A DNA stretch of 24,000 nucleotides. It comes from Bdellovibrionales bacterium. Lineage in GTDB: Bacteria > Bdellovibrionota > Bdellovibrionia > Bdellovibrionales > Bdellovibrionaceae. Both the position numbers and the translations under genes were made by a program. Shown here piece after piece: positions 2,033 to 21,135 of this stretch (position 1 is its first letter; every line of letters starts with the position of its first letter). The DNA is taken from NCBI GenBank assembly GCA_005793345.1, contig SXSU01000092.1:111316-135315 (forward strand). Reading direction: 5' to 3'. The notes under the pieces were generated by a model, which saw nothing but the letters and a program-made list of their open reading frames with translations, was not told the DNA's origin and made no database searches.

Positions 2033-2059
2033 TACCAATTCTTAGTCTAAAGTTAGATT

Positions 2060-2824: not shown

Positions 2825-2828
2825 AAAA

Positions 2829-3509
2829 TCACTCCAAGCTTCTGAGCAATTTTTTGGTTTGATTTTGAATCTCAATATTTGAAGAGAATGCTTTTGAAGC
2901 CACAAGCCAAGTTTCTTTAGCTTCAAGAAAGCGATTTTTTTCTTTAAGTAACATGCCTACTCGAAGTAAAATCATCCCAGTTTTATCGCTTTCTGGAAAT
3001 AGCTCCATCATTTTTTGTGAAGTTTCGACACATAAATTTAACTCGTGGGTTTGATAATAACTTTCTGCTAAAATAAAATATAAATTTACTAAGTTTGGAG
3101 AAATAGGGTCAAGTGCAAGAATTTCATTCACAGAAGTTATGACCTGCCCATATTTTCTATCAGAAAACTCTTTCATAACCAAATCAATACGGGCATCAAT
3201 TTTAGAGTACTTAATGATATCAGGATTTTCTTTTGTAACAACACTTGCTAAGCTTCGTACCTGATAATCTTTTTTTAAGTCTGATTTAATATTCGGCAAT
3301 AGTGCTGCTACATTTTGTTGAAAAACTTGATATTTGTAAGTGAGTAAGTCTTGTTGCGCTTGGGATTTTAAAAGCGAAACTTTTAACTCATGATTGGCTT
3401 CAATATAATCTCGAGTATCACTGAAATACTCTCGAAACTTGTAGTACGACCATTGCCAAAAACTTAGCAAGGCCATCATAAAAATTAATAAGATTGAACC
3501 CTTTTTCAT
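2829..3509 (-). CDS. TPR protein, CpoB/YbgF-like (226 aa)
   Basis: N-terminal hydrophobic segment ILLIFMMALLSFW, then a heptad-like region. The C-terminal half (LDPISPNLVNLYFILAESYYQTHELNLCVETSQKMMELFPESDKTGMILLRVGMLLKEKNRFLEAKETW) matches the YbgF-type TPR pattern (P.S...A.y.lge.yy...A...f......P.S.k...all..g). Confidence 0.55.
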   Translation of the reverse strand: MKKGSILLIFMMALLSFWQWSYYKFREYFSDTRDYIEANHELKVSLLKSQAQQDLLTYKYQVFQQNVAALLPNIKSDLKKDYQVRSLASVVTKENPDIIKYSKIDARIDLVMKEFSDRKYGQVITSVNEILALDPISPNLVNLYFILAESYYQTHELNLCVETSQKMMELFPESDKTGMILLRVGMLLKEKNRFLEAKETWLVASKAFSSNIEIQNQTKKLLRSLE

Positions 3510-3631
3510 ATCTAATATATCGGCAAATCATGAAAAAACTAAAATAACTGCTTTTGATTAAATCTGATTGCTTATGAAACGTTCGTTCTGACTCAAAATA
3601 AGATTGAAAATATTTAGGCAAAACGCTGTTA

Positions 3632-4060
3632 GTGGTTTTATGGGCTAAAGTTTTGGGCTGGACTTCCGATAAGGTATTTGGATTATCTCGGTATCAAATG
3701 CCAATCTTAAAACAAGTGATTGGTGCCACGCAAACTTTTACATTGGCAGATTTTAATTTGCTGTCGATTTATGGTGGGGGCTTTGCAGGTTTAAAAATCT
3801 GGGAATCGGAATTTATTTCATGGATGCGATTGCAGTATCCAATTTCAGGAACAGGCGCAGCTAAACTTTCAAATGGTATTAGCTTTGATGGAGCCTTAAC
3901 ATACCTAAGCCCGTCAGCCTCAAAAAAATCGTATTGGGGATTGACGTGGGGAGGGCAGTATCATTCACTCAATTATAATATCCAAAGTGAAAATAATACT
4001 AATCGCACCTTCTCCATTTTTATTTCAAAAATGGATTTTATCTACGGCTACTCATTTTAA
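3632..4060 (+). CDS. outer-membrane beta-barrel-like fragment without a signal peptide (142 aa), possibly a gene remnant
   Basis: GTG-initiated ORF. It has alternating aromatic/Gly-rich beta-strand-like composition and ends ...FIYGYSF, a terminal aromatic-x-Phe typical of OM barrels. There is no N-terminal signal sequence. An ATG at 3530 (MKKLK) lies in the same frame but is separated from the ORF by four stop codons. Confidence 0.35.
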   Translation: MVLWAKVLGWTSDKVFGLSRYQMPILKQVIGATQTFTLADFNLLSIYGGGFAGLKIWESEFISWMRLQYPISGTGAAKLSNGISFDGALTYLSPSASKKSYWGLTWGGQYHSLNYNIQSENNTNRTFSIFISKMDFIYGYSF

Positions 4061-4260: not shown

Positions 4261-5697
4261 TTATTGTATAAGATCGTCAAATGAGATTATTTTATAGAAA
4301 TAATTGTTAATTATTTCTTCATCTTCAATATAGATTGTACCTTGGTAGATTAATATAGGCTTTAATGCAGATCTTTTTGGTATCGCAATCGCATCAATTT
4401 TTTGTTTTACTTCTTTTATAATTTCTTTTGTTATTATTTTTTTACATTTTATTTCACAAAGATAAAAGATATCTAATTTTGTATGTATCAACAAATCGAT
4501 TGCGCATCCTTTTTTGAATCGAGAGTTTTTCTTCTGGATATAGGGAGCTGATGAGTTTAGTTCGGTTTCTTTAATTTCGAGAACTTTATGAATTAAATCT
4601 TTATTTGCTAATATTAAGTTTTCAAACTGGTATCCAAGAATTTGTTCTATATTTTTTACTTCATTGAGATCATTAAATTTAATACCACCTTTTTCAATTT
4701 TACCTTTGAGAGGTTCAATTATTTTGAGGTAAAATCGAGTGTAGTTATCTTTTACGCGAATATGGCTTGATTTCATAACTTGGGATGTATCAGTTTTAAA
4801 ATAAAAATCTCTGCTAATAAATCCTGAAATTTCTAAAATATGTAGTGCCTCAGTAAGATCGCTATTGTGATCTATTTTTAGTTTTTTTGCTAAAGAGTTA
4901 GGAGTCAGTTTTTCGTCTAAACATAATCTAATAATTTTTTCCAAACCTTGTGATCTTCTTCTAAAAATATCTCTAAAAATTTTATCAAAATCTCTATATA
5001 GTATTCCTCCTTTATCAAAACAAATTTGAGCTAAACTTTTAGTGGATGCTTTTGATTTAACTATTTCTTCGAGGTATTTAGGAACTCCTCCTGTTATTGA
5101 TAAGGTAAGCATTTTTTCTAACGAACCCATATGAAAATTATTTTTGACCCAAAATTCATTGATTTCAGTTAATGAGAGCTCTTGTAAGTTAATATCAAGA
5201 GAGACTCGTCCTAAAAAATCAGTATTGTTTAAAATATTTTTTTCAATCCAAGCAGAAACTGATCCGCAGACTACAAGAATAAGTTGAGGGTTCTTTTTAA
5301 ATTTAGTATCCCATGCGGATTTTAATTTTGCAGCAAACAGTTTATCGCCGTTTCCTAGCCAAGAAATTTCATCTAGAAATATTAACCACTCTTTTTTATT
5401 TGTTAATTTTGCAAGGTAATCAAAAGCTTCATCCCAGTCACTTAATTTGGGCTGGGGAATTTTAAATTGTTCAGCTAATGAAATTGCAAAGTGTTGGAGT
5501 TGATCTTTAGCTGTCGATTCAGTTTCAGGCCCCAAACCTTGCACTTCAAAAAAATTCGAAAAAGATTTTGACCATTCTTCTATTAATGAACTTTTCCCAA
5601 TTCGTCTTCTGCCGAGCAGACAGACAAAACTAGCTGTTTTTTTATATTTTAAGTTATTTAATTGATTGAATTCAGTTTTTCTTCCAATAAATGACAT
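4261..5697 (-). CDS. AAA-type ATPase of the ATPase_2 (PF01637) + DUF234 architecture with a C-terminal PD-(D/E)xK-like motif (478 aa)
   Basis: Start moved to the internal ATG at 5697 (MSFIGRKTEFNQL, the usual N-terminus for this family) with GGGGAG just upstream. Walker A is LLGRRRIGKSSL and Walker B is LIFLDEISW. DUF234-like motifs are RFYLKIIEP and GYQFENLI. The C-terminal AIDLLI...LCEIKCK fits D...E-x-K. Confidence 0.8.
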   Translation of the reverse strand: MSFIGRKTEFNQLNNLKYKKTASFVCLLGRRRIGKSSLIEEWSKSFSNFFEVQGLGPETESTAKDQLQHFAISLAEQFKIPQPKLSDWDEAFDYLAKLTNKKEWLIFLDEISWLGNGDKLFAAKLKSAWDTKFKKNPQLILVVCGSVSAWIEKNILNNTDFLGRVSLDINLQELSLTEINEFWVKNNFHMGSLEKMLTLSITGGVPKYLEEIVKSKASTKSLAQICFDKGGILYRDFDKIFRDIFRRRSQGLEKIIRLCLDEKLTPNSLAKKLKIDHNSDLTEALHILEISGFISRDFYFKTDTSQVMKSSHIRVKDNYTRFYLKIIEPLKGKIEKGGIKFNDLNEVKNIEQILGYQFENLILANKDLIHKVLEIKETELNSSAPYIQKKNSRFKKGCAIDLLIHTKLDIFYLCEIKCKKIITKEIIKEVKQKIDAIAIPKRSALKPILIYQGTIYIEDEEIINNYFYKIISFDDLIQ

Positions 5698-5825
5698 AAA
5701 CTCCCCGCCAATACTACAAATGTACATTTAGCGGGTATATTTTGTCAATATACAAACTCCCCGCCAAATGTGCATTTATAGTATTAGCGGGGAGTTTATT
5801 ATTAATACAAACTCCCCGCCAAATG
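5694..5825. repeat. GC-rich repeat array in the tolR / ATPase intergenic region
   Basis: ATACAAACTCCCCGCCAAATG is perfectly repeated at 5750-5770 and 5805-5825. A 14-nt partial copy, AAACTCCCCGCCAA, lies at 5698-5711 and overlaps the ATPase ribosome-binding site. Inverted copies are GCGGGGAGTTT at 5787-5797 and a partial TTAGCGGG at 5728-5735. The arms 5754-5764 and 5787-5797 can form an 11-bp stem. Palindromes are AAATGTACATTT (5718-5729, perfect) and AAATGTGCATTT (5766-5777). Confidence 0.75.
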
Positions 5826-6877: not shown

Positions 6878-6937
6878 ATAAACTCCAAAGTGAGATTATT
6901 AATAAATATAGAGTTTCAGAATTTAAATCAAAAAGCA

Positions 6938-8827
6938 ATGGGTCTATTCGATATGCGCCAAGTCTCATTATTAAAAAATGCAATATTAATATTAAATATC
7001 TATTTTCTTGTGTGTTGCAATCAAATTCAATCGGAAAAACACTCTGTGCTTATTATTGCCATCGAAAAATTAGGAGCAAACGATTTTTCTTGTCATAATT
7101 ATGAAGATCCCGAGAATACTAATTCTGGTTTTAAGAGAATTTGTGAAGAAGGAATTCGATTTACCCATACTTTTACTCCATCAGTACTTAGTGCACCAGC
7201 AATAGGTGGAATGCTTACAGGAATACATCCATTTATTAATGGATTGAGAGATAATGGTGGGACATCACTTTCAGGTGCTTTAAAAACAATACCTGAACTT
7301 TTAATCGAACAAAAAGTAACTACTTTATTTATTGGAACATCACCCACCATAAAAAGACATTCGCGTTTACATCAAGGTTTCGAGAAGTTTGATGATGATT
7401 TTAATTTGCAAGTAAATAAAGAGTTCCGTTCTTCTAAAAATGCTGTTCAGATTTTTAAGGATTGGTATATAGATGAAGTTAAATTTAATAATTTTTTTGC
7501 CGTCTTACAATTGTCAAATTTACTTTTTCCATATGCAGAAACTACAAATGAAATGGGAGAACTTCGCCCATTAGGTTTTGAAGCACAACTTGAAGATCTT
7601 GACTATTCGTTATACCAATTATTTAAATTCTTAGATGATAGAAAAGCATGGGAAAAAAATTATATTTTCCTTGTTGGGTTAAACGGTAAAAGTAATTTTG
7701 AAAAGTTAAAAGATATTCCAAATGCAAGTTTATCTTCTGATATATCAAATGTAGTTTTTTTTGTGAAACCTCCAAAGGGCAGAGAAGAAACGCCACATCA
7801 TTGGAAAATTGATGAGTCAATTTCTTTATTAGATATTGGTCCGACACTTGCTGATATATTTAATGTTAATGAAAGCTACGAAAAGTTTTCTCATGAGTTT
7901 TTGAATTCAAAAGGTAAAGAATTAGAATTTAAATTGTTAAAGGGAGAGAGTCTTTTTAATCTAATCAATAAAAATAAAAATACAATTTCAAGTGATCGAT
8001 TAATTTTGATAGAGTCAGCCTGGTCAAATTGGATTAATTTAAGTGGAATTCGTTATTTACTTCGAAAAAATAATTGGGTGTACAACATTGAAGAAAAACC
8101 TTACTACTTTAATGATTTAATTGATAGAAACCAAACTAATAAAATTTATGATGAAGACCATGTTGATAAAGATTTTTTAGTTCACGTAAAAGAAGTAAAG
8201 CAAAACTTAGGACTAACTGAGTGGCGCCCGTTCGATGACTCAACCATTGAGATGTTTAGTATTATATCTCAGTATGATAAGTTTAAAAAAATCTCATCTA
8301 TTGATGAGCTTAAGTATTTAGAAGCACTTATAAGTTTAGTATTAATTAAACCAGATGTTAATACTGTTAATTTATTTTTATTTAATGAGTTAATTAAACT
8401 TAGAAAATGGAATCGAATAGAACAAATCAATAAGGTGGTTAAGAGTAATTTGATTGCTGAGTTAATAAAATATTTAAATTTATCTATCTCGCAAAGGCAA
8501 CAGTATCAATTTGTAAATTCATGCCTAAGTCTTTTGTTAACTGGTGCTGAACCTAATGTCCCTATTATAAATCAACCTTGCAGTAGTAATTTAATAAAAA
8601 TATTTAGTAATTATGTGTATTCAAATTTAGATTCAACTCAAAAAGAGTTACTGGCTCAAAAGTTTAGTCGAATTAAAAATAATTTAATTTTAAAAAAAGC
8701 AATTTACGACTTAGATATACAAAATATCGGCGTCTTTGGAGTTATTAATTTTTTGCAAGACGATTTATTATATTATGAAATAATAAAAGCTTTACCTCAA
8801 TTTCAAAGAACATTGCTAACACTTTAA
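6938..8827 (+). CDS. sulfatase / alkaline-phosphatase-superfamily protein with degenerate active-site motifs and a long C-terminal extension
   Basis: The start is uncertain: the track gives GTG 6890, I prefer ATG 6938, and ATG 6953 is also possible. There is a signal-like segment LLKNAILILNIYFLVCC. The N-terminal region VLIIAIEKLGANDF...GIRFTHTFTPSVLSAPAIGGMLTGIHPFINGLRDNG aligns by eye to the sulfatase pattern (DD...G..F.n.y....C.PSR..llTG..p..hG). About 300 C-terminal residues have no recognisable motif. Confidence 0.6.
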   Translation: MGLFDMRQVSLLKNAILILNIYFLVCCNQIQSEKHSVLIIAIEKLGANDFSCHNYEDPENTNSGFKRICEEGIRFTHTFTPSVLSAPAIGGMLTGIHPFINGLRDNGGTSLSGALKTIPELLIEQKVTTLFIGTSPTIKRHSRLHQGFEKFDDDFNLQVNKEFRSSKNAVQIFKDWYIDEVKFNNFFAVLQLSNLLFPYAETTNEMGELRPLGFEAQLEDLDYSLYQLFKFLDDRKAWEKNYIFLVGLNGKSNFEKLKDIPNASLSSDISNVVFFVKPPKGREETPHHWKIDESISLLDIGPTLADIFNVNESYEKFSHEFLNSKGKELEFKLLKGESLFNLINKNKNTISSDRLILIESAWSNWINLSGIRYLLRKNNWVYNIEEKPYYFNDLIDRNQTNKIYDEDHVDKDFLVHVKEVKQNLGLTEWRPFDDSTIEMFSIISQYDKFKKISSIDELKYLEALISLVLIKPDVNTVNLFLFNELIKLRKWNRIEQINKVVKSNLIAELIKYLNLSISQRQQYQFVNSCLSLLLTGAEPNVPIINQPCSSNLIKIFSNYVYSNLDSTQKELLAQKFSRIKNNLILKKAIYDLDIQNIGVFGVINFLQDDLLYYEIIKALPQFQRTLLTL

Positions 8828-8832: not shown

Positions 8833-9510
8833 TTAAAGCGAACAATTGCCTATCCAAAATGGTATTTGCGAGTTTCTATTTGAAAGTTCTGTTGCTAATA
8901 AACTAAGATCAGTTTTTATTTTAAAATTATGATTAAGAAATGTTGTTGGAAATTGTGGGCCTGCGGTAACAAAAAGTTGATCATCAGGTTCAAAGCGAAC
9001 ACTAGTTAATTGAGGATAACAAATATTATCTGTTCCCATAAGGTTTAATGGAATAGGTGGTTGCGAGGCAAGATCATTTGTTACGACTCCAGAACTACTA
9101 GTTAAAATAATTGGGTCAAAGGCTTTATTAATCAGAACAGTGCTGAAACTTCCAATTTGGCCAATAACTAATTCGTGACCTGAAATTCCTATTGAAATTA
9201 ATTCTAGTCCAGAAACATAACTTTGCTTATTATGTGCTCGGTAAATTTTCTCATTACTAATTAGTAGTGAAGTTCTCATTATATTAGTTAAAGGTGATAA
9301 ACTTGGTATTTTATCAAATGGTGAAGTCGACTCAAAATCATTTTTAGAAGCAGAAAAGTAATTTGAAATAGTTTCGGATACTTCTTGAAAAGGGTTAATT
9401 TCACCCCAAGAAAAGCCTATTGTTATTAATTTTAAATCTTTATCAAATAATACATCTGCTTTTGGAATTGCAAAATTTCCCCGATAATTATGTTGAGTAA
9501 AATTTTTCAT
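8833..9510 (-). CDS. PP2C-like protein lacking the catalytic aspartates (putative pseudophosphatase, 225 aa)
   Basis: The ATGA start overlaps the upstream gene stop. By eye, ITIGFSWGEINPFQEVSETISNYF aligns with avaDGmGGh.aGe.AS. GLELISIGISGHELVIGQIGSFSTVLI...ILTSSSG aligns with GtT.......l..a.vGDSR.yl....lT.DH. DDQLFVTAGPQ aligns with gD.lllcSDGl. The metal-binding Asp positions are not conserved. Confidence 0.45.
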   Translation of the reverse strand: MKNFTQHNYRGNFAIPKADVLFDKDLKLITIGFSWGEINPFQEVSETISNYFSASKNDFESTSPFDKIPSLSPLTNIMRTSLLISNEKIYRAHNKQSYVSGLELISIGISGHELVIGQIGSFSTVLINKAFDPIILTSSSGVVTNDLASQPPIPLNLMGTDNICYPQLTSVRFEPDDQLFVTAGPQFPTTFLNHNFKIKTDLSLLATELSNRNSQIPFWIGNCSL

Positions 9511-11486
9511 ATAGCACCATATTTTTTTAATTTGATCTTTGATTTTTGAAAGTATTCGCCAGCGGGAACGTCAAGCTCTAATATTTTTTTCCAACGTTCT
9601 TTTGCAGTTTCAACATTTCCAATATTTTCTTCAACAATAGCTTCCTGATATAGACCTTGCATTTTCTTTTTTAATTCACCAGTAATCAATGCAATTTGCT
9701 CAGGAATTTTTTCATCTTCTGGATCTAAGGTTTGTGCTTTTTCTAATAATAAAATTGCATCTTTAAAGTTTTCTCCCTCTGCCATTGATTTACTTTTTTC
9801 AATGGCTTCTTTTATTTTATTTTCACTATCTTTCATTAAGTTATTTTTTTTCTTTTTAGCTTTTTCTTTTAATTTTTCAGGATCAGGTAGTGTAGAACCC
9901 ATAACCTCATCTAGAGCTGCAATTCCTTTCAACTGATTTTTTTCAGTTAGAGCAAGAGCAGCATCATATTGATCTTTGAGGGCTTTTACTTGAGCTTCGA
10001 ATTGTGCTTGTTCTTGTAAGCGTAATTTTCTTTCTTCTTCAATTTTATTAAGTTGCTCTTTTAAACTTATAAGAGCTGGATGTTCAGGATTTATTTGTAA
10101 TGCGGGGGCAAGACATTCATTCAATTGCTCAATAGACATATCTTTATTTATAAATTGAGAACAATGTTTTACGACATTCTGAATTCGGTCTTCTAGCTCT
10201 CTTTTTTCAGATTCAATTCTTTCATTTTCTTCTTTACGTTTTAAATCTTCAATTGCTATTTTAACATAATTTTCTAAATCTTTTGAATCTTCATATTTAG
10301 GAATTTTTTCGTGTAATTTAAGTAATTCGGCTTGGGCCATTTGATAATTGGCTTGCATATATAAATTTTTAGCAAGATTATAAGTATGCTTAACATAATT
10401 TTGTTCTTCTGGACTTAATTTTAAAAATGGATCAGCAGCGGCTGAGGCCTTTGCCGCATCGTCAACACCATTCGAAGAATCATTACTGTTATTCAAAAAA
10501 ATTACTATTAATAAAAGTGCACCTACAATTGCGATGCGGATTTTATTTTGTTTATTGAGTTCAATTTTTAAACCCCAAAAATTAAGAATAGGATAGGGAT
10601 TCGCAGGTGCAGAAAAAGACTCTACAGCTGGTTGGGAGTTTAATTGTTCTTCTGATGGAGGATTAAATTGCGGTTCCCAAGACGCTAATTCATTTAAAGG
10701 CTCTTGAGGAGCTATTGGTAAATGATTGATTGCTTCGAGAGCTTTTATTTCAAAATTAGTATCTATCAATGTAAAACTTAGTTTAATATTTAAAACACTA
10801 ATTATATCACCACTTAATAATACAACGGGCTCACTTGGAGAAATTTTATTTCCATTTAGAAAAGTGCCGTTTACAGAATTTAAGTCTTGAATAAAAAATT
10901 TATTACCAATATTTGTAATTTTAAATTGTTTGCGACTAATCCTTTGATTTTCTAAAACGATATCATTATCAGCCTCTCGACCAGCAACAAAAATCTCTTT
11001 ATTCATTTCAATTTTTTTTGTTTCGTTACCATTTTCATCTAAGAAAATTATGATTGGTTTTAGATTATAACTATGGGCTACTGTCATTGTTTTTTCACTG
11101 ATAGCAACTGCATGTTCGTGCGCACTTAAATTTTCAATAGTTTGAACTGCTTTGGCTTGAGAGTTTTGCTCAACTTGAGGTTCTAAACTTAAAACTGTAT
11201 CTTCAAAAATAAAATCATATGGATATACTGTAAATAATAGTCCATTTTCTAACTCAATTTCATTTTTTGATTCGTTATTTAGAAAAAGCTCACCTATTTT
11301 TGAGACTAGCAGAACTTTCCATTTGGAGTTTGAGTAATAAATTTTTATATGTTGACGAGAAATTCCCTTTTCAGCTTCTAAAATAATTGCACAATTATCA
11401 CCTCGACCAGCAAAGTATTCTTGGGAAATATCGAGATCTAAAGTTTTAATAATTTCCGTTTTTAATTTGACAAGTATTTTTGCCAT
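9507..11486 (-). CDS. dual-FHA membrane protein with a long coiled-coil/TPR C-terminal domain (659 aa)
   Basis: FHA1 is at about aa 1-96 (G27-R28, S43-R-Q-H46). FHA2 is at about aa 143-240 (G169-R170, S184-R-K-Q187, SVNGTFLNG). A P/Q-rich linker follows, then a TM at IRIAIVGALLLIVIFL (aa ~316-331). The C-terminal 330 aa are rich in E/K heptads and TPR-like helices. The ATG directly abuts the upstream TAA. Confidence 0.85.
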   Translation of the reverse strand: MAKILVKLKTEIIKTLDLDISQEYFAGRGDNCAIILEAEKGISRQHIKIYYSNSKWKVLLVSKIGELFLNNESKNEIELENGLLFTVYPYDFIFEDTVLSLEPQVEQNSQAKAVQTIENLSAHEHAVAISEKTMTVAHSYNLKPIIIFLDENGNETKKIEMNKEIFVAGREADNDIVLENQRISRKQFKITNIGNKFFIQDLNSVNGTFLNGNKISPSEPVVLLSGDIISVLNIKLSFTLIDTNFEIKALEAINHLPIAPQEPLNELASWEPQFNPPSEEQLNSQPAVESFSAPANPYPILNFWGLKIELNKQNKIRIAIVGALLLIVIFLNNSNDSSNGVDDAAKASAAADPFLKLSPEEQNYVKHTYNLAKNLYMQANYQMAQAELLKLHEKIPKYEDSKDLENYVKIAIEDLKRKEENERIESEKRELEDRIQNVVKHCSQFINKDMSIEQLNECLAPALQINPEHPALISLKEQLNKIEEERKLRLQEQAQFEAQVKALKDQYDAALALTEKNQLKGIAALDEVMGSTLPDPEKLKEKAKKKKNNLMKDSENKIKEAIEKSKSMAEGENFKDAILLLEKAQTLDPEDEKIPEQIALITGELKKKMQGLYQEAIVEENIGNVETAKERWKKILELDVPAGEYFQKSKIKLKKYGAI

Positions 11487-12578
11487 TTAGTACCTGCCCT
11501 TTGATAGAATATCACACTCATCAAGTATTTGTTTTGCTTCTTTATAAATCGAATCATTAGGATCTCTTCGCAAAATTAAGACTTGTTGTGCGGCTGATTT
11601 ACAAAGCCTAAAATTACTTTTTTCACGATACCTTCTTGCTTGATTCATATTAAATTGAGTTAGGCTATCATACTTTTGTAGTGATAAATTTAAATACTTT
11701 TTAGCTAAAATATGATTCGGATCAAAAGATAATGCAGCTTGAAAAGATGAAATAGATCGACTGTATTGCCCATTGCGATAATCTCTAAAACCTTTTACAT
11801 AATAAGTTTGAGCAGACTCAAATTGACGATTTAAGGATCCATCTTCATTTATTTTTTTATTTATTTTATATTGTTCTGCTAACTCTTTTGATTCCTTAAT
11901 TTCATTTTCGTACTCTTCAATTGTTCTTAGCGCTGAACCTTTTTTGGGTTTCTTTTTTTCTTCTGGCATCAAAAATAAAACTACAGCAATTATTAATACC
12001 ACTACGATAAGCATATTTTTATTTGAATTACTGTTTTTATTTGCATTATTACCTTGGGATCCTTTTTTTGCAGGTATGGGTTTATAGGGATCAGGTGTTT
12101 GTTGTATTGGTTGTTGTATTTGTTGGCGAGTAAAAACTTGCAACTGGGCATTTTGTTTTTGAGTTTGAATTTGATGTGTTGTAGGTGGTTGTGAAATATT
12201 TTGTGGTGGTAAGCTAGGAGGATTTGCTGTTGTGATTGTATCGATCCAATCAAACGACAATTCTGAGTCTCCAATCACAATTCTTCCATTTGCAACCATT
12301 TCTACTATTTCTTTAAAAATTCCTTGGTAAAAAATTGGATTTCTTTTGCTTTGGTTTTCTATTTTTAAAATTAAGTTTTCCTTATTAACCCGAATATGTG
12401 TTCGACTCATTTTTGAATCATTTGGTAAAATAATTTGATTTTCGGGTCCTCGGCCAACTGTAAAAGTATTTTTATCCAAAGTAAACGACTCACCCTTGTG
12501 AGGGCCACCAGTAATAGTAACGACAATCTTTCGATGTTGGTTACTTAAAAGTGATTGAGCCGTTGCATTTTTTGACAT
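11487..12578 (-). CDS. FHA membrane protein with a C-terminal TPR-like domain (363 aa)
   Basis: FHA at about aa 18-111 (G42-R43, S58-R-T-H61). A Q/P/N-rich linker follows, then a TM at MLIVVVLIIAVVLFLM (aa ~189-204). TPR-like helices are present (YYVKGFRDYRNGQYSRSISSFQAALSFDPNH...). An AAGGAAG Shine-Dalgarno sits in the 11-nt gap upstream. Confidence 0.85.
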   Translation of the reverse strand: MSKNATAQSLLSNQHRKIVVTITGGPHKGESFTLDKNTFTVGRGPENQIILPNDSKMSRTHIRVNKENLILKIENQSKRNPIFYQGIFKEIVEMVANGRIVIGDSELSFDWIDTITTANPPSLPPQNISQPPTTHQIQTQKQNAQLQVFTRQQIQQPIQQTPDPYKPIPAKKGSQGNNANKNSNSNKNMLIVVVLIIAVVLFLMPEEKKKPKKGSALRTIEEYENEIKESKELAEQYKINKKINEDGSLNRQFESAQTYYVKGFRDYRNGQYSRSISSFQAALSFDPNHILAKKYLNLSLQKYDSLTQFNMNQARRYREKSNFRLCKSAAQQVLILRRDPNDSIYKEAKQILDECDILSKGRY

Positions 12579-12589
12579 AACTTCCTTTT

Positions 12590-14203
12590 TTAGTTCATTG
12601 GAATAATACTTATAATAAAATAACTGGGACTTGATTTTTCATAACAACAGACACAGTTAAGTTGATTATTTAATCCTGCAAACTCAAGTTCACTTTGGTG
12701 AATTTGACTTGGATCCTTTGAGGCTCTATCTAATAAATCGTGAATATTCTTTTGAAGAGCCTGATCTGGTATTAAACTTATTGGTTGATTGCGGAGATTT
12801 GATTCACTTACACCCATTAGATTTTCAAAAGCATGATTTAATGAAATGATATTTAGTTCTTTACTAAACCCTATAGATGCATAACCGATTAAGTTAATCA
12901 TATTACTTGCTTCTATCTCTTTATTAATAACTAAATTATTATTGTTAATATCATTTTCTCCCAAAGACGCAACTCGACTTAATATAGTATTTATATTTGT
13001 AATTAAGTTTTGGAATATCGGAAATTCAATTTTAATTGGCTCTGTTGTTTCAGATTTATTTTTGAGTGCCAAATCTACTTGAGTATTTAAAAAACGAATG
13101 GGATATTCTATCAGCCGAGAAAATAAAAAATAAAGTATTGCACCAATTATTAGTGCTAAAACTAATATTTGTATAAATAAACTAATTGTTCTTCCATCTT
13201 CTACAGCAAGAGATTCGATGTCATAAATTACAATTGCGTAGGCCTTTATAACAAAACCACCAGAGTCAGGATTATAGGCTGATATTGGTATTGAAACACC
13301 AATTTGTTTAGTGGCAATATTTTGTACAAACTCTTTCTGCTCTTTTCGAGCTTTTTCAATAAAGGGTATATCTGGAACTGAACCAATTTTAGTTGCAGGC
13401 GCCATAACTGATCCGTCTGATGCTCTTATAATATAAGTGTTTGATACACCCTCTTCAAGCTCTGCGAGACTAGTTGTAAGTGCAGTTTCATTTTCATTAA
13501 TAAGTGCTTGTTGATTAATATTTGCTAAGCTTCTTGCAATAGTGATTGCTCTTCGCTGAGCTTCTATTTGAATACTTTCAGTACTAATAGCTATCATCGG
13601 TATAGTTGCCAAAATAGTTAGAACTACTGCATATCCAAATAAAAATAAAGCAATGACTAATTTGAACTCCATAACTTCAGTGAGTTTATAAACTCCAGGT
13701 AATAAAACTGTATCAATGTAGTTATTAAATTTTTGCGCTGGAGTTTCCTCAAGTCTTACCTGCTGTACGTTTTGAGCAGGCTGAACAGTTTGAGAGTTAA
13801 GTTGTGGATAAAACTGTTGAGCGTGTGATTGATTTTGTTTTTGAATTTGAAAATGTGGAGAAATCTGCTGATTACTTTGAGATTTTACAACAAGTCCCTT
13901 TTGGGAAGGTGTTGGAACTTCTATAATATCACATAAAATGTCTGTTAATGAAATTTTATTACCTTTAGATAATTGAACTTTTTGAATTTTTAATCCATTT
14001 ACAATTGTGCCGTTTCTAGATTTATTATCTGTAATAAATATTTTATCATTTTCATCTAGTTCTATATAAGCATGTTCTTTTGAAATATTAGGTCCATCAA
14101 CTTTAATTGTACAATGTGATGATCGACCTATAAGAGTTTTACCAACTTTAAGTGGGTAGACAAGTCCTGATTGAGGTCCTGATAAAATTCTAAGCCCCCA
14201 CAT
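12590..14203 (-). CDS. FHA - TM - Cache-like extracytoplasmic domain - TM - HAMP-like - PAS-like protein (537 aa), no output domain
   Basis: Canonical FHA (G26-R27, S41-K-E-H44, S62-R-N-G-T66, N69-G70). Q-rich linker. TM1 at about aa 181-206, a loop of about 130 aa, and TM2 at about aa 340-361. HAMP-like segment SRLIEYPIRFLNTQVDLAL.... C-terminal PAS-like fold (LIGYASIGFSKELNIISLNHAFENLMGVSESNLRNQPISLIP...). The start overlaps the DUF192 gene by 14 nt. Confidence 0.85.
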   Translation of the reverse strand: MWGLRILSGPQSGLVYPLKVGKTLIGRSSHCTIKVDGPNISKEHAYIELDENDKIFITDNKSRNGTIVNGLKIQKVQLSKGNKISLTDILCDIIEVPTPSQKGLVVKSQSNQQISPHFQIQKQNQSHAQQFYPQLNSQTVQPAQNVQQVRLEETPAQKFNNYIDTVLLPGVYKLTEVMEFKLVIALFLFGYAVVLTILATIPMIAISTESIQIEAQRRAITIARSLANINQQALINENETALTTSLAELEEGVSNTYIIRASDGSVMAPATKIGSVPDIPFIEKARKEQKEFVQNIATKQIGVSIPISAYNPDSGGFVIKAYAIVIYDIESLAVEDGRTISLFIQILVLALIIGAILYFLFSRLIEYPIRFLNTQVDLALKNKSETTEPIKIEFPIFQNLITNINTILSRVASLGENDINNNNLVINKEIEASNMINLIGYASIGFSKELNIISLNHAFENLMGVSESNLRNQPISLIPDQALQKNIHDLLDRASKDPSQIHQSELEFAGLNNQLNCVCCYEKSSPSYFIISIIPMN

Positions 14204-14540
14204 AAAATTTATCTCCCTCTTTTAAATCAAATTTTTTAATTGATCCTGCACGCATTTCAATAACTGAGTTTGCAGCAATGACTGGCCAAGTTGCTCGCCA
14301 TGGGACAATGTTTTCTTTTAATCCACGAATCACTAATTTATCATCTAAGAATATACAATCGATGGGATAATTCATAAAAAATGTATGTATGCTATTGCAC
14401 ATTTTTATCCAAAGCATATGGTCATCTTTAAGCTCGTGAGTTCCCAATAAACCTTTCATTCTTTGAAATGAATTAGATGCAATAGTTAAATGTTGAGAGA
14501 TAAGTTTATTATCTGATTGAACTAAATATAACTTTTGCAT
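14190..14540 (-). CDS. DUF192-family protein (116 aa)
   Basis: FQRMKGLLGTHELKDDHMLWIKMCNSIHTFFMNYPIDCIFLDDKLVI matches the DUF192/COG1430 pattern (R..GLm.r..l....gmlF......fwM.nt..pLDi.f.d). The start overlaps the upstream stop (TAATG). Confidence 0.7.
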   Translation of the reverse strand: MQKLYLVQSDNKLISQHLTIASNSFQRMKGLLGTHELKDDHMLWIKMCNSIHTFFMNYPIDCIFLDDKLVIRGLKENIVPWRATWPVIAANSVIEMRAGSIKKFDLKEGDKFYVGA

Positions 14541-15445
14541 TATTTAGATCCTCCACTCATAAACTGAATTACAACAGGTCCAAAAACCATTATAAATACT
14601 GCTGGGAGAATTAGAAAAATAATTGGTAATAAAATTGTTTGTGAGGCTTTTGCACCGGCTTTTTCAGCACGGACAAATCTTTCAAGTCTCATTTGAATGG
14701 ATTGATCCTTAAGTACTTGTGAAATGCTTGCGCCAGTTGCATCCGCATCAGCAAGTACAGCAATAAAACTAGTGATCTCACCCATGTCGAGTCTTCGAGC
14801 CATTCCTCGAAGGGATTCAATTCTTGAGGCACCAAGTTTAATGTCTTTAAGAACAATTGAAAGTTCATCCGCTAAAACAGAATTTTCTGCTTTATCAACA
14901 ATTCTTTGTATAGCACCAATAAAATCAAGTCCGGCTTCAGTAGAGAGAGCAAGTAAGTCAATAAAAAAAGGCAAATCTATGCGAACAGCATTTATGCGAG
15001 AGGTTCGTACTCCATTTGCATGTATGTCTGGTAACATATATCCAAGTGGCATTATAAAAAGGAAAACAATATACGGAAAACCAAGATCTAATGCAAAATT
15101 CATTACCAGCAAGAAAAATGGAAACATTATGCCTAAGAATAATCGTAACCCAATGTATTCATCAACAGTAAGTTCCCGCGACATACCCGAGGTCATTAAA
15201 ATTTTTTCAACTTTTTTACGATAAAATTGATCTTTAATTTTTACTGCATACTTTAAAGTAAATTGGTGGACTAGTGGGAGACAGGCGTTAATGACTTGTG
15301 ACTTTGACTTAGGGCGCTCTTCACCTTTTGCCCAAGCTAAAAACTCAGTTTGATTTTGATTGCCAAATAATACACGCAAAAAAAGATAGACAGATATACC
15401 CGTCAGCATTAATGCGGTGATTAGTATTAAATCAGCTCTTCCCAT
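14540..15445 (-). CDS. type II secretion system F-domain protein, TadB/TadC-like pilus platform protein (301 aa)
   Basis: One N-terminal TM, central hydrophobic segments and a single T2SSF-type domain (LPFFIDLLALSTEAGLDFIGAIQRIV...LGASRIESLRGMARRL...ITSFIAVLADADATGASISQVLKDQS...AEKAGAKASQTILLPIIFLILPAVFIMVFGPVV). It is the first gene of its operon; the gene to its right is divergent. Confidence 0.8.
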   Translation of the reverse strand: MGRADLILITALMLTGISVYLFLRVLFGNQNQTEFLAWAKGEERPKSKSQVINACLPLVHQFTLKYAVKIKDQFYRKKVEKILMTSGMSRELTVDEYIGLRLFLGIMFPFFLLVMNFALDLGFPYIVFLFIMPLGYMLPDIHANGVRTSRINAVRIDLPFFIDLLALSTEAGLDFIGAIQRIVDKAENSVLADELSIVLKDIKLGASRIESLRGMARRLDMGEITSFIAVLADADATGASISQVLKDQSIQMRLERFVRAEKAGAKASQTILLPIIFLILPAVFIMVFGPVVIQFMSGGSK

Positions 15446-15474: not shown

Positions 15475-16800
15475 ATGTATAAATTAATTTTAGCTTCACA
15501 ATCCCCACGCCGAAAAAAAATTTTAACAGAAGCAGGGTACTTATATAAAGATCTCCCTGTTAACTTATCGGAAACTCCTGATAAAAACCTAAATCTGGAC
15601 GAACAAATAATTAAGATCGCACGCGAAAAAGCAGAAGCTTGTCTAGAGTCAAATAACTATTTGAAAAATCAAAGTTATTTAATATTAGCATCAGATACTA
15701 TGGTTATTGTTGATGGAGTAATGTTGGGTAAACCAATTGATAAAAATGAAGCTAAAAAATTTTTGCGACTTTTATCTGGTCGAGATCACTTTGTTAAAAC
15801 TTCTGTTTTTGTTTTAAATTGTCAAACTTTAGAACACATAGAGGGAATAGACACAACAAAAGTATTTTTTAAAAATTTAACAGATAACGAAATAAATTCC
15901 TATGTTGAAAGTGGAGAACCAATGGATAAGGCAGGAGCCTATGGAATTCAATCTTTGGGTGGAACATTTGTAGATTACATCGATGGCTCAATGAATACTG
16001 TTGTAGGTTTGCCATTAATTTTATTTGAAAATTTACTAAAAAAAAATAATTGGTCCATTGAAGAAACAGAGTCTTCCGATAATTTAGTTCAAGAAAATTT
16101 TTTAAAATTTAAAAATATTTTTGAAGCTGAATTATTAAGAAATAATCAGATGAAAATAGGATCATTAACAAAAGCAAAGTTATTGGCAGTTTCTAAAACA
16201 CATCCACTTTCAAAAATAAAATCTGTTTATAAAAAAGGCCAAAGACTTTTTGGCGAAAATTATGTACAAGAAGCGAACTTAAAAGTTGAAGAAGCTCGAT
16301 CAGAACACTTAGACATTGAGTGGCATTTTATCGGTAAACTTCAGCGAAATAAAGTAAAAGATGTTATTGGTCGTTTTGCTTTAATACATTCGGTTGATAA
16401 TTTAGATTTGGCAAAAAAAGTTTCATCAATTGCTGAGCAAAAACAACTTAATCAAAAGTGTCTTCTTCAGTTAAATATCGGAAGTGAAGATACAAAATCT
16501 GGTTTTTCTCCAGTGGAACTTTTAAGTTGTATGTCAGAGCTTATAAAGTTACCGAATGTCACTTGGCAAGGTGTAATGTCTATGCCACCATTAACTGAAG
16601 ACGAACAAAAAGTTCGTGGATTTTTAAGACAAACAAAGGATGTTTTTGAAAAAATAAAATCAAATTTACCTAAAGAATTTATTTCTGAATGGAAACATAT
16701 ATCAATGGGTACCACTCATGATTTTAAAATTGCTCTTCAAGAAGGATCTACATTTATTCGAGTTGGAACTGCAATATTCGGAGAAAGAGAATACACGTGA
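15475..16800 (+). CDS. maf-yggS: Maf nucleotide pyrophosphatase fused to a YggS-family PLP-binding protein (441 aa)
   Basis: Maf motifs in aa 1-190: LILASQSPRRKKIL, ASDTMV, DKAGAYGIQ. YggS motifs in aa ~225-441: LLAVSKTHP (PLP lysine), FGENYVQE, WHFIGKLQRNK, SMGTTHDF, FIRVGTAIFGER. This is a single uninterrupted ORF. Confidence 0.85.
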   Translation: MYKLILASQSPRRKKILTEAGYLYKDLPVNLSETPDKNLNLDEQIIKIAREKAEACLESNNYLKNQSYLILASDTMVIVDGVMLGKPIDKNEAKKFLRLLSGRDHFVKTSVFVLNCQTLEHIEGIDTTKVFFKNLTDNEINSYVESGEPMDKAGAYGIQSLGGTFVDYIDGSMNTVVGLPLILFENLLKKNNWSIEETESSDNLVQENFLKFKNIFEAELLRNNQMKIGSLTKAKLLAVSKTHPLSKIKSVYKKGQRLFGENYVQEANLKVEEARSEHLDIEWHFIGKLQRNKVKDVIGRFALIHSVDNLDLAKKVSSIAEQKQLNQKCLLQLNIGSEDTKSGFSPVELLSCMSELIKLPNVTWQGVMSMPPLTEDEQKVRGFLRQTKDVFEKIKSNLPKEFISEWKHISMGTTHDFKIALQEGSTFIRVGTAIFGEREYT

Positions 16801-17781: not shown

Positions 17782-18081
17782 GGAATTGCCCAGATTACGC
17801 CTGAGACTCTAAAAGCATTGCAAGATCCTAATGGTGAGGTTAAAGATTTCATTTTTAGAAATATTCGGAAGAAAGATTTGAAAAATCCAAATATTGCAAT
17901 TCCTTTGGCCATTAGATGGCTATCACGTAAAAAAAGATTAGCAGAAGGAAAGCTGGGTAGAGCTGCAACTGCGGAGGAAATTATTTTGGAATATAAAGGG
18001 CTTCTAAAAAGCAAAAGTGAATTTAAAAACAACGCTGTCGAAAAATTTAGAGAAGAATATGGCAAGCTTACAGCGAAATAA
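17773..18081 (+). pseudogene. 5'-truncated lytic-transglycosylase (SLT)-like gene fragment
   Basis: The frame is open from the TAA at 17770-17772, which lies inside repeat copy A. It reads TKGGIAQITPETLKALQDPNGE...NIAIPLAIRWL. GIAQITPET resembles the SLT motif G-L-M-Q-I/V-x-P-x-T. The catalytic Glu-Ser region expected upstream is absent. The only available start is a TTG at 17818. Confidence 0.4.
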
Positions 18082-18586
18082 GCATTCGATCATTTTCGTA
18101 TTTTATTTATTTTTGCAAGGTTGTACTACAAGCTCATTTTATAACGTTGGTAAACCAAATGCATCAGGAACAGAAATAAAAGTTAGTCCAGATAGAATTA
18201 TCACAGAGTGTGAATTTATTACTGATTATGATGGAGATCAAAAAAGTCCTTATGGTTTTATGATACACATTTTAGACTTACAAAATACCGTGATCACCGT
18301 CAGCAATGGAGTAGTCCTTGAAAAAGAATATTGCTTTGAAAGACAGGTGGCAGTAGATAAGATTATTAAAAATGCCCAATCAGTTATAGTAAGTGGACGA
18401 GGAAATGCTGAAGCCCCGATTGTTAAGGGGGAGTTTAAACACACCTTTAAAAGACATGGCACTTATTATGGTAACGGTCGTAGTCTTAATTTTTTAGCTA
18501 TTTGGAATAATAGAGAAGATTGTTATAGTGGATTTAACGGTGAAGACGATCCTTGTCTGCTGCTCAATAATCCCCTCAATTATTAA
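18059..18586 (+). CDS. putative lipoprotein (175 aa)
   Basis: Track ORF trimmed to ATG 18059, giving MASLQRNKHSIIFVFYLFLQGC, a signal peptide with a lipobox-like LQGC. Five Cys in the mature part. The last 8 codons plus the stop lie inside repeat copy B. Confidence 0.55.
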   Translation: MASLQRNKHSIIFVFYLFLQGCTTSSFYNVGKPNASGTEIKVSPDRIITECEFITDYDGDQKSPYGFMIHILDLQNTVITVSNGVVLEKEYCFERQVAVDKIIKNAQSVIVSGRGNAEAPIVKGEFKHTFKRHGTYYGNGRSLNFLAIWNNREDCYSGFNGEDDPCLLLNNPLNY

Positions 18587-18664: not shown

Positions 18665-19810
18665 ATGGCTTCGAAAACTAAACTCAAAGAACGTTTATAT
18701 GCATCCTACATACTTAAAGATCTTGGAAAAAAAATGGTTTTTTTAGGTGGCCCACGTCAAGTAGGTAAAACAACACTGGCAACAGAGTTTCTAAAAAAAT
18801 ATTATGATGGGCATCCTGCATATTTGAACTGGGATAATGAAATATCAAGAAAGAAAATATTAAAGTCTGAATGGTCAAAAGATGAACCCCTAATTATCTT
18901 TGATGAAATTCATAAAAAAAAAGGGTGGCAAAGTTTTATAAAAGGGATTTGGGATGTCTGGAAGAATACTCAAAAATTTCTAATTACTGGTTCGGCACGA
19001 TTAGATATTTTTCGTAAAGGAGGCGATTCAATGTTGGGTCGCTACCATTACTATAGATTACATCCATATTCACTTCCAGAACTTGGATATAGTGAAAAAA
19101 ATTTAACTCTCCTATTTAAATTCGGAGGTTTTCCTGAGCCATTAATAGAACAAGATGAAGTTGAGTTAAGAAGATGGCACCTTCAAAGAGTTGCAAAATT
19201 AGTAAGAATTGATTTAAGAGATTTAGAGTCAATAACTGATTTAGATAAAGTTGAAATTCTAGCTGATACTTTACCTTCAAGAGTGGGGAGTGGGTTGTCT
19301 TATAAATCATTGGCAGAAGATTTAGAAGTGTCAGATAAAACAGTAAAGCATTGGGTGCAGATGCTTGAAAACTTATATTATTGTTATTTGATACCTCCGT
19401 TTGGCTCTCCCAAAATAAAAGCTATAAAAAAAACTTCCAAATTATATTTGTGGGATTGGTCGCAGGTTGAAAATCCAGGATTTAGATTTGAGAATATGGT
19501 CGCCTCGCATCTCTTGAAGCTTTGTGATTTTTGGCAAGATGTTTTAGGTTATAAAGCAGAGCTTCGTTACATCAGAGATGAAACAGGTAAAGAATGTGAT
19601 TTTGTCGTGATTAAAGATCGTAAACCAATATTTGCCGTTGAATGTAAGTTGAGTGATACCGATGTTTCACCGTCTTTGATTTTTTTTAAATCAAAGTTAG
19701 ATATTCCAATGTGGTATCAAGTTCACTTGAATGGAAAAAAAAGAATTATTGAACCAAATTTTAAAATTTTATCCTTTGATGAGTTCTGCAAAGAAATCAA
19801 AGCAATCTGA
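18665..19810 (+). CDS. AAA_14 / DUF4143-type ATPase (COG1373-like) with a C-terminal PD-(D/E)xK motif (381 aa)
   Basis: Walker A is LGGPRQVGKTTL and Walker B is LIIFDEIHK. Also present are GSARLD...LGRYHYYRLHPYSLPE and FENMVASHLLK. The C-terminal ECDFVV...FAVECKLSD gives D312...E326-x-K328. Confidence 0.85.
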   Translation: MASKTKLKERLYASYILKDLGKKMVFLGGPRQVGKTTLATEFLKKYYDGHPAYLNWDNEISRKKILKSEWSKDEPLIIFDEIHKKKGWQSFIKGIWDVWKNTQKFLITGSARLDIFRKGGDSMLGRYHYYRLHPYSLPELGYSEKNLTLLFKFGGFPEPLIEQDEVELRRWHLQRVAKLVRIDLRDLESITDLDKVEILADTLPSRVGSGLSYKSLAEDLEVSDKTVKHWVQMLENLYYCYLIPPFGSPKIKAIKKTSKLYLWDWSQVENPGFRFENMVASHLLKLCDFWQDVLGYKAELRYIRDETGKECDFVVIKDRKPIFAVECKLSDTDVSPSLIFFKSKLDIPMWYQVHLNGKKRIIEPNFKILSFDEFCKEIKAI

Positions 19811-19859: not shown

Positions 19860-21008
19860 ATGATACAGCGAATATGTAATTTATCGAATTCACATAGCTT
19901 TTTCTTGTTTGGACCGCGAGGTGTTGGCAAAACTACCTTTCTTGAACATTGGGCTAAGGGGCAAAATGTTTTTTACGTTGATTTGCTTGACCCTGAAATT
20001 TCACATCGTTACTCCTTAAGACCTCAATTGTTGATTTCTGATTGGGAAGTGAAAAAAGCTGAATGGATCATTGTTGATGAAATTCAAAAAATACCTGAAC
20101 TGCTTGATGTTGTTCAAAAACAAATGCGAAAAAAAAATGTATACTTTGCTTTAACAGGGTCCAGTGCTCGAAAACTTCGAAGAGGCGCTTCTAACTTGTT
20201 AGGAGGGAGAGCTTTTGAATTTCATTTCCATCCGTTAACTCATATTGAATTAGGATCATCTTTCAATCTTTTAGAAGCTTTGAAGTGGGGAACCTTACCC
20301 TATATTGGTGAGCTATCTGATGCAAATAAAGTTAGAAGTTTATACTCGTATGTTTCTACTTACTTAAAAGAAGAAATTTTAGTTGAGCAGATAGTTCGAA
20401 AAATTGAACCTTTTCGAAGATTTTTAGAAGTGGCAGCACAGATGAACGGAAAAATTTTAAATTATGCAAAAATAGCAAGAGACTCAGGAGTTGAAGAAAG
20501 AAGCGTTGCTCGATATTTTCAAATCTTAGACGATACATTAGTAGGGTTTCACTTGTATCCATTTGAAAAGTCATTGAGAAAGCAGCAATCTCAAAAAGCA
20601 AAATTTTATTTTTTTGATACAGGTGTAACTCGTGCTTTGCAAAATAAAATCACCTTAGATCTAAACACTATGACAAAAGATTATGGTGATTATTTTGAGC
20701 AGTTTCTTGTATTAGAATTTTTTAGGTTAAATGATTACTATGAAAAGCATTTTGAATTTTCGTACTTTCGATCAAATGATAGTCTCGAGGTAGATTTGAT
20801 TGTTAAGCGTCCTGGGAAACCTGAAATTCTCATAGAAATAAAATCACATGATTATTTTAATGAAGAGGATTCAAAGAATTTAGAGATAATTTCAAAAAAT
20901 TTCCTAAACCCTGAAATGTATGTTTTATCTAATTGTAAAAAGCCTACTAATGTTCGAGGTGTTCAATTTATTCATTGGCAAGATGGGATTAAAAATATTT
21001 TTGCGTAA
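19860..21008 (+). CDS. AAA_14 / DUF4143-type ATPase paralog with a C-terminal PD-(D/E)xK motif (382 aa)
   Basis: Walker A is LFGPRGVGKTTF and Walker B is WIIVDEIQK. Also present is GSSARKL...LGGRAFEFHFHPLTHIE. The C-terminal motif is EVDLIV...ILIEIKSHD. It lies 49 nt downstream of the first paralog on the same strand. Confidence 0.85.
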   Translation: MIQRICNLSNSHSFFLFGPRGVGKTTFLEHWAKGQNVFYVDLLDPEISHRYSLRPQLLISDWEVKKAEWIIVDEIQKIPELLDVVQKQMRKKNVYFALTGSSARKLRRGASNLLGGRAFEFHFHPLTHIELGSSFNLLEALKWGTLPYIGELSDANKVRSLYSYVSTYLKEEILVEQIVRKIEPFRRFLEVAAQMNGKILNYAKIARDSGVEERSVARYFQILDDTLVGFHLYPFEKSLRKQQSQKAKFYFFDTGVTRALQNKITLDLNTMTKDYGDYFEQFLVLEFFRLNDYYEKHFEFSYFRSNDSLEVDLIVKRPGKPEILIEIKSHDYFNEEDSKNLEIISKNFLNPEMYVLSNCKKPTNVRGVQFIHWQDGIKNIFA

Positions 21009-21135
21009 AATTTGTCATTAAGAGTAAAAAGCTAGACTTTTGATTTAAAAAATTTAGTTTTAAAATTTAGTTTTAAATTATATCCTTAACTAAAAATTAA
21101 CTTGGGTTTGAAAATACTTTTGCCGAATAAAAAGT

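Follow-up and report, generated by a model that had tools for sequence, protein, structure and literature searches.

The closest described counterpart of the locus studied here is the tadC locus of Bdellovibrio bacteriovorus, Bd0470-Bd0475. These six genes were reported as one operon (Front Bioinform 2025, PMC12034629), and a supplementary list gives Bd0470 as the ortholog of KilH, the TadC of Myxococcus (Supplementary file 2, PMC8460266). The Tad machine of B. bacteriovorus is complete but genetically dispersed, with a separate 'tadC locus' beside FHA, TPR and PAS genes and the other tad genes in other loci, and TadC is essential and located at the invasive pole (bioRxiv 10.64898/2026.07.08.737194). 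We investigated a six-gene operon on the minus strand of a 24,000-nucleotide stretch of DNA, hereafter the window, from a Bdellovibrionales bacterium (contig SXSU01000092.1). The original prediction, made from the sequence alone, had described this operon as a combination unlike any described system. The operon is not a new system. Judged by gene order, flanking genes and 61% TadC identity, it is the ortholog of Bd0470-Bd0475 in an uncultured relative of Bdellovibrio and adds another copy of a known system.

The requirement of the operon for predation is known only from B. bacteriovorus. The Bd0470::tn mutant showed no prey attachment, killing or rounding, and in the case of Bd0474::tn, prey attachment was kept while killing and rounding were lost; both mutants were complemented (Duncan et al. 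2019 mBio, PMC6561027). Predation fitness in transposon sequencing was approximately 0.002-0.03 for all of Bd0470-Bd0475, and the likeness of Bd0475 to serine phosphatases was already given in 2019 (PMC6561027 supplement). Bd0474 was described as having two cytoplasmic FHA domains and an extracytoplasmic TPR domain, bacterial two-hybrid work confirmed that it binds Bd0075, a TPR protein of the periplasm, and the pair Bd0473-Bd0475 gave an interface predicted template modelling score (ipTM) of 0.604 with AlphaFold-Multimer (PMC12034629). Tad (type IVc) pili are essential to Bdellovibrio when it invades prey and to Myxococcus when it kills on contact. As candidates for the step that turns contact with prey into pilus activity, the literature names the FHA-rich genes beside tadC.

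Six minus-strand open reading frames (ORFs) filled positions 8833-15445. The ORF listing and direct reading of every junction on the coding strand confirmed the six genes and their junctions at the coordinates first proposed. The features were as follows, with orthology and topology as predicted.

14540-15445, minus strand: tadC, Tad pilus inner-membrane platform protein (T2SSF family), ortholog of Bd0470/KilH, 301 amino acids (aa)
14190-14540, minus strand: DUF192 protein, ortholog of Bd0471, predicted cytoplasmic, 116 aa
12590-14203, minus strand: protein with FHA domain, transmembrane helix, periplasmic loop, second transmembrane helix and cytoplasmic PAS domain, ortholog of Bd0472, 537 aa
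13946-14137, minus strand: FHA domain of the 537-aa protein, residues 23-86 (Pfam coordinates)
11487-12578, minus strand: protein with FHA domain, transmembrane helix and periplasmic TPR domain, ortholog of Bd0473, 363 aa
9507-11486, minus strand: protein with two FHA domains, transmembrane helix and periplasmic coiled-coil/TPR region, ortholog of Bd0474, 659 aa
8833-9510, minus strand: predicted PP2C-fold pseudophosphatase, ortholog of Bd0475, cytoplasmic, 225 aa
15446-15474, no strand: divergent intergenic region between tadC and maf-yggS, 29 bp

The tadC stop and the DUF192 start overlapped as TAATG at 14540, and the DUF192 gene shared a 14-nt ATG...TAG overlap with the gene of the 537-aa protein at 14190-14203. 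The TAA of the latter was followed by an 11-nt gap, AAAAGGAAGTT, and then by the ATG of the 363-aa gene at 12578. The TAA of the 363-aa gene abutted the ATG of the 659-aa gene (11487/11486), and the 659-aa and 225-aa genes were joined by an ATGA overlap at 9507-9510. This tight packing by overlap or abutment was suggestive of translational coupling.

The locus of B. bacteriovorus HD100 was alike in its six genes, their order, strand and overlapping junctions, and in its flanking genes. Its proteins have 302 (TadC), 115 (DUF192), 556 (FHA), 384 (FHA), 675 (two FHA domains) and 228 aa (last protein). TadC was 61% identical over its full length to the B. bacteriovorus T2SSF protein, the DUF192 protein was 43% identical, and the other four were 29-38% identical, so that the five proteins other than TadC had strongly diverged from their counterparts. 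The common flanks were the divergent maf/yggS/proC/divIVA genes upstream and a convergent sulfatase gene followed by exbB and exbD downstream. TadC had been regarded as an orphan in the original prediction. Since Bd0470 is the TadC of a dispersed Tad machine and lies apart from tadB, TadC is a platform subunit and no orphan, and the combination has already been described. The cluster is essentially a variant of an annotated Tad locus, which is the finding that had been named beforehand as speaking against an undescribed system. The accompanying suggestion of a module serving a Tad-like machine whose genes lie in other loci agreed with the literature on the B. bacteriovorus tadC locus.

A scan of a genome collection with the TadC alignment gave 387 relatives, and the best 80 loci, all of them from Bdellovibrionales, were compared by tblastn and by synteny with profile hidden Markov models. 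Among these best 80 of 387, the nearest relatives by TadC were Pseudobdellovibrionaceae metagenome-assembled genomes, with 72-73% identity. The tadC gene was syntenic in the 80 loci. In 64 loci the contig was long enough for the array to be judged, and the gene neighbourhood, proposed at the outset as a check, was kept: all six genes were present, with order and orientation unchanged, in 63 of the 64. The single exception was an ORF-boundary artefact, and every shorter array was cut by a contig end. Chance juxtaposition of the genes was rejected on this count. The overlapping junctions also persisted throughout the compared loci. Identity to the window proteins dropped steeply along the operon, from 58-73% for TadC to 36-50% for the DUF192 protein, 32-49% for the 537-aa protein, 26-60% for the 363-aa protein, 28-42% for the 659-aa protein and 21-33% for the 225-aa protein. 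The order-wide invariance of the array, together with the residue-level predictions given below that are open to testing, is what this analysis adds to the known system.

The absence of a kinase from the operon held beyond it. Neither the window nor any of 86 related loci, each about 20 kb long (about 10 kb on either side), contained a Hanks catalytic-loop motif. The kinase, if any, acts in trans. A literature search on Ser/Thr kinases of Bdellovibrio yielded nothing usable. We consider it probable that the tadC operon encodes an accessory and regulatory subcomplex of the Tad inner-membrane platform, and for this subcomplex we infer a phosphothreonine-dependent mechanism with a kinase in trans.

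The T2SSF, DUF192 and FHA assignments of the original prediction were all recovered with Pfam, and every match of the operon proteins exceeded its curated gathering cut-off. The 301-aa protein matched T2SSF (PF00482) with E 4.6e-14 and 52.9 bits against a cut-off of 25.2. It had 2462 homologs, and the sources call homologs 'tight adherence protein C'. TadA ATPase, TadB, RcpA secretin, Flp pilin and prepilin peptidase were absent from the 24-kb window. The 116-aa protein matched DUF192 with E 1.7e-18, and its gene was present in 80 of 80 loci. Bd0471 was labelled 'secreted protein / has signal sequence' in a published supplement. However, the hydropathy scan gave no transmembrane helix in the DUF192 protein, and a signal-like N-terminus was found in none of the 80 orthologs. 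The secreted label of Bd0471 is therefore doubtful: the published signal-sequence annotation is probably wrong, and the protein is probably cytoplasmic. Its coupling to tadC suggested that the DUF192 protein is a platform-associated cytoplasmic factor. The literature search on DUF192 returned nothing relevant to pili.

The three membrane proteins carried four FHA domains in total. Against a cut-off of 20.7 bits, the FHA match was E 4.8e-17 (62.6 bits) in the 537-aa protein, E 4.9e-5 (24.1 bits) in the 363-aa protein and E 6.9e-27 (94.1 bits, two stretches) in the 659-aa protein. The hydropathy scan agreed with the proposed order of N-terminal FHA domain, linker and transmembrane helix in each protein. 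One helix was found in the 363-aa protein (188-206) and one in the 659-aa protein (316-334). In the case of the 537-aa protein, there were two, at residues 183-201 and 342-360, and only residues of about 202-341 (about 140 residues) were predicted to be periplasmic. The modules that had been placed beyond the membrane stood in part. TPR and coiled-coil regions were present in the 363-aa and 659-aa proteins (TPR_2 in the former, E 3.1e-4), but the C-terminal domain of the 537-aa protein was predicted to be a cytoplasmic PAS domain, with PAS models matching 24 of 35 orthologs. A Cache-like periplasmic loop in the 537-aa protein was weakly supported, with PF24820 matching 3 of 35 orthologs (best E 0.0011) and dCache_1 matching 1 of 35 (E 0.067). 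The AlphaFold2 single-sequence model of the membrane and PAS half of this protein had a predicted local distance difference test (pLDDT) of only 44. In the predicted periplasmic parts, one pair of Cys residues was invariant in the 363-aa protein (C326/C355, 30 orthologs) and one in the 659-aa protein (C442/C458, 34 orthologs). These pairs suggested periplasmic disulfides, in keeping with the predicted topology.

The FHA residues were then compared among 30-35 orthologs, in which GR plus S-x-x-H or S-R was invariant in all four domains. In the 537-aa protein, G26, R27, S41, K42, H44, S62, N64 and G65 were invariant (35 orthologs). In the 363-aa protein, G42, R43, S58, R59 and N80 were invariant and H61 was nearly so (30 orthologs). 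The first FHA domain of the 659-aa protein kept G27, R28, S43, R44 and H46 and was missing the N-G motif, and the second kept G169, R170, S184, R185, N206 and N211, with Gln in place of His (34 orthologs each). The nearest solved FHA relatives of the 537-aa protein were FhaA of M. tuberculosis, GarA and OdhI, which are true phosphothreonine readers. These residues indicated that the phosphothreonine pockets are conserved in all four FHA domains, which are predicted to be competent for phosphothreonine reading.

The same domains may be read in another way. PF16697 (Yop-YscD_cpl), the model of the type III secretion system (T3SS) YscD cytoplasmic domain, matched all FHA regions (E 4e-13, 3e-8 and 6e-16; E 3.4e-8 for the 363-aa protein). 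The operon could thus encode a structural ring or alignment subcomplex that is independent of phosphorylation, like SctD (YscD/PrgH) or the PilMNOP proteins of the type IVa pilus. In such a subcomplex, the FHA-like domains would ring the platform in the cytoplasm and the periplasmic parts would bridge to the secretin, with accessory structural roles left to the PP2C-fold and DUF192 proteins. The order of N-terminal FHA domain, transmembrane helix and large periplasmic domain mirrors SctD, and MXAN_4649 beside kilH was matched to PrgH by its authors (PMC8460266). The lack of a kinase in cis, and the lack of some canonical accessory proteins in the Bdellovibrio and Kil Tad systems, also fit this explanation. 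However, the pocket residues (GR, SxxH, NG) were invariant in the orthologs. To our knowledge, such residues are not kept in YscD- or PrgH-type domains. The FHA score was higher than the YscD_cpl score in two of the three proteins, and the full-length SctD model TIGR02500 was not matched (21.6 and 12.2 bits against a cut-off of 86). Together with solved relatives that are true phosphothreonine readers, this made a purely structural ring possible but unlikely. Phospho-dependence would not preclude a scaffold role, and the two explanations are partly compatible.

A T6SS-type (type VI secretion system) or T3SS-type locus was rejected. TIGR03354 was also not matched (29.9 bits against a cut-off of 120), so that the full-length models stayed far below their cut-offs; core genes were absent, and no T6SS family was among the Pfam matches of the window.

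The last protein of the operon, with 225 aa, had zero matches in Pfam, NCBIfam or PDB sequence searches, and a word-indexed homolog search gave two proteins only. Its orthologs were gathered by synteny, and the profile of this alignment (A2) found 99 homologs, none of them with a Pfam domain. Look-ups from two divergent homologs led back to this operon. The family comprised 349 cluster representatives among 1.84 billion proteins, all of them single-domain proteins of about 190-250 aa. The synteny-derived orthologs and the A2 profile made a confident structure model possible. The AlphaFold2 model, based on a 62-sequence alignment, had a pLDDT of 90.5 and a predicted template modelling score (pTM) of 0.88. 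All of the top 50 Foldseek matches of this model against the PDB were PP2C/PPM phosphatases, whose fold is a beta-sandwich with pairs of helices on its sides. The best was tPphA (E 9.3e-11, template modelling score 0.64), and the others included S. agalactiae STP, PstP, T6SS PppA (6jkv, E 1e-9), Stp1, RsbX, SpoIIE and plant and human PP2Cs.

The metal centre of this fold is predicted to be degenerate in the family. At the positions of DGxGG, VGD, SDG and DN, the family residues were S/A/P34-W35-G36, S/R/Q/A121, S/A183 and P/T/S/A217-F/Y218, and Asp was absent from the common residues at all four mapped metal positions (36 and 62 sequences). The profile of the family against PDB sequences matched only tPphA, at E 0.33, which is below significance; this alignment was used only for placing the tPphA metal ligands D119 and D193, which align with R/S and S. 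The PP2C fold, with no Asp common at any metal position that was mapped, supported the assignment as a PP2C-like pseudophosphatase, and with it the degenerate PP2C fold of the original prediction.

An active phosphatase with a non-canonical centre would instead form a reader-eraser pair like Fha1-PppA, with its kinase in trans. The clear PP2C fold, the similarity to T6SS PppA and the conserved acidic residues D58, E60, E103 and E113 would fit such an enzyme. However, these acidic residues lie in the helix1-helix2 loop and in strands, off the mapped metal sites. The Pfam PP2C and SpoIIE profiles did not match the 225-aa protein, and only 1 of 62 members matched SpoIIE (E 0.037). With Asp also missing from the mapped positions, an active enzyme is very unlikely. 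The most conserved motif of the family was a loop at residues 58-66, D-x-E-V-T-S-P-F-(D/E), between the first two helices, in which T62 was invariant in 98 of 98 sequences. As judged from PstP, the helix1-helix2 loop is variable in canonical PP2Cs. The T62 loop has a Thr with a hydrophobic residue at +3, and we speculate from this that it resembles FHA-binding motifs.

A signalling module for polarity, cell division or gliding that is unrelated to the Tad pilus and only shares a transcript with tadC is hardly credible, for although divIVA, maf and proC are conserved neighbours and the Bd0474 mutant attaches where the tadC mutant does not, the tight overlap with tadC was kept in 63 of the 64 loci while identity fell to 21-40%, the Myxococcus FHA genes also flank a TadC ortholog in a differently arranged cluster, and low predation fitness is common to all six genes.

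For the accessory subcomplex of the Tad platform, the following mechanism is proposed. The three FHA proteins would surround the TadB/TadC platform as an accessory and regulatory collar. In the periplasm, their TPR, coiled-coil and sensor-like domains would connect to partners in the envelope and may detect contact with prey. On the cytoplasmic side, the FHA domains would dock on sites at which a Ser/Thr kinase from another locus has phosphorylated threonine, and candidate targets are cytoplasmic Tad components, the disordered linkers of the FHA proteins and, in the pseudophosphatase, the loop with the invariant Thr. The latter protein might act as a non-catalytic adaptor or as an occluder of FHA domains and not as an eraser, or it might be an FHA ligand through its Thr loop. 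The subcomplex would in this way license Tad activity for the steps after attachment.

Several points weigh against this mechanism. Phosphorylation, a kinase or an FHA ligand has been identified for no ortholog, and no kinase lay within about 10 kb in the 86 loci. All FHA regions matched the YscD cytoplasmic-domain model, which leaves room for a purely structural, phospho-independent role. The contact between FHA proteins and pseudophosphatase has a single backing in the borderline published ipTM of 0.604. Of the four metal positions, two were placed through the sub-threshold tPphA alignment and two by secondary-structure reasoning. Polar effects of transposons in a coupled operon could inflate the apparent need for upstream genes, and the source organism was assumed, by analogy with B. 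bacteriovorus, to have tadA, tadB, rcpA and flp. A more specific version of the subcomplex is offered tentatively and is unlikely. In this version, the FHA proteins, the pseudophosphatase and the DUF192 protein would be a phosphothreonine-gated collar of TadB/TadC that licenses post-attachment invasion, driven by a kinase in trans and by contact with prey as sensed in the periplasm. The T62 loop would be an FHA ligand or decoy, and the dead phosphatase fold would have turned into an FHA-docking switch.

The problem of the tadC operon was sharpened by this analysis. It now concerns an invariant array, four conserved FHA pockets without a kinase in cis, a metal-stripped PP2C fold with an invariant Thr loop and a cytoplasmic DUF192 protein, as far as these can be predicted. 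The residues are cheap, concrete mutational targets in the genetically tractable B. bacteriovorus.

The region upstream of the operon was compact. The divergent start codons of tadC and maf-yggS were 29 bp apart, and the spacing was identical in B. bacteriovorus (L001, 9971/10001). This meant that the operon promoter must sit partly within the neighbouring gene and that both promoters overlap the neighbouring coding sequence. A promoter-like site was found on the minus strand at 15549-15520 by consensus match only. In the window, neither promoter-like sites (25 observed, 32.6 expected) nor terminator-like sites (4 observed, 2.9 expected) were enriched over shuffles, so internal transcription signals were unsupported. 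Scans for tRNA genes and Rfam families gave no match in the window.

The flanks differed from those of B. bacteriovorus in several respects. The window organism has about 30% GC and is nearest to Pseudobdellovibrionaceae metagenome-assembled genomes, its maf and yggS are fused, and its proC and divIVA are separated by two AAA_14/DUF4143 ATPase genes plus one gene for a histidine kinase. The fused ORF (15475-16800, plus strand, 441 aa) joined Maf (residues 3-190) to a YggS-type domain (221-438) that binds pyridoxal phosphate, whereas in B. bacteriovorus two neighbouring genes encode Maf (193 aa) and YggS (219 aa) separately. One ORF covering both halves was also found in 7 related loci (L013, L018, L045, L052, L067, L070 and L076). 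The ATPase genes were in tandem (18665-19810 and 19860-21008, plus strand). Because proC and divIVA lie close together in B. bacteriovorus, the pair found between them here looks like a lineage-specific insertion. The histidine kinase gene (21136-22425, plus strand) carried HisKA and HATPase_c with a weak N-terminal MASE11 match. It fell in the lowest-GC stretch of the window (0.233 at 21001-22000), and no such gene was found at the corresponding position of the B. bacteriovorus locus.

On the other side, a sulfatase-superfamily gene (6890-8827, plus strand) converged on the operon end, with the stop codons 5 bp apart. The position of this gene, followed by exbB and exbD, was kept in most Bdellovibrionales loci, and the sulfatase gene was undetected by tblastn in the five closest relatives (L005-L009). 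A separate ATPase_2/AAA_14 gene was located at 4261-5727 on the minus strand. Seven ORFs of 142-400 aa in 75-4060, 18017-18586 and 23134-23871 matched no Pfam family at E <= 0.01. The ORFs at 2060-2926 and 2829-3509 overlap by about 100 nt, and one of their start assignments is therefore likely wrong.

The operon shared single features with several other known systems. Like T3SS SctD (YscD/PrgH), its FHA proteins have an N-terminal FHA-like cytoplasmic domain, followed in the 363-aa and 659-aa proteins by a single transmembrane helix and a large periplasmic domain. Unlike SctD, they keep the predicted phosphothreonine pocket, and their periplasmic parts are of TPR, coiled-coil or sensor-like type and are not ring-building. 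The actinobacterial fhaA-fhaB-pstP-rodA-pbpA-pknA-pknB cluster also places several FHA proteins beside a PP2C-fold protein, and the FHA domains of the operon were closest in sequence to FhaA, FhaB/FipA and GarA. That cluster has an active PstP, two Hanks kinases and a role in cell-wall growth. In contrast, the operon has no kinases, its PP2C fold is predicted to be degenerate, and its partner is a Tad platform protein. In the case of Fha1-PpkA-PppA of the Pseudomonas aeruginosa T6SS, an FHA reader and a PP2C-fold protein are likewise encoded with an envelope-spanning machine. The operon differs in having no kinase in cis, no mapped metal ligands and no T6SS genes, and in having four FHA domains that are membrane-anchored. 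The C-terminal domain of E. coli RssB and the eukaryotic TAB1 are PP2C-fold pseudophosphatase adaptors that have no functional metal centre and are used for protein binding. The 225-aa family has no sequence relationship to them; its members, of about 225 aa, stand alone and carry an invariant D-x-E-V-T-S-P-F loop of their own.

After B. bacteriovorus, the comparison was extended to Kil cluster 2 of Myxococcus xanthus. There, kilG (TadB) and kilH (TadC) stand together with pilin and cpaB genes, unlike the operon; DUF192 and PP2C-like genes are not listed, and the ATPase KilF itself carries an FHA domain (PMC8460266). In both cases, a Tad-derived machine is used in predation, a kinase is not named in the cluster, and FHA genes accompany the TadC gene; in Myxococcus these are MXAN_4648 (FHA and TPR) and MXAN_4649 (FHA, PrgH-like), directly next to kilH. 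FHA enrichment was discussed as a hallmark of the Kil clusters (PMC8460266).

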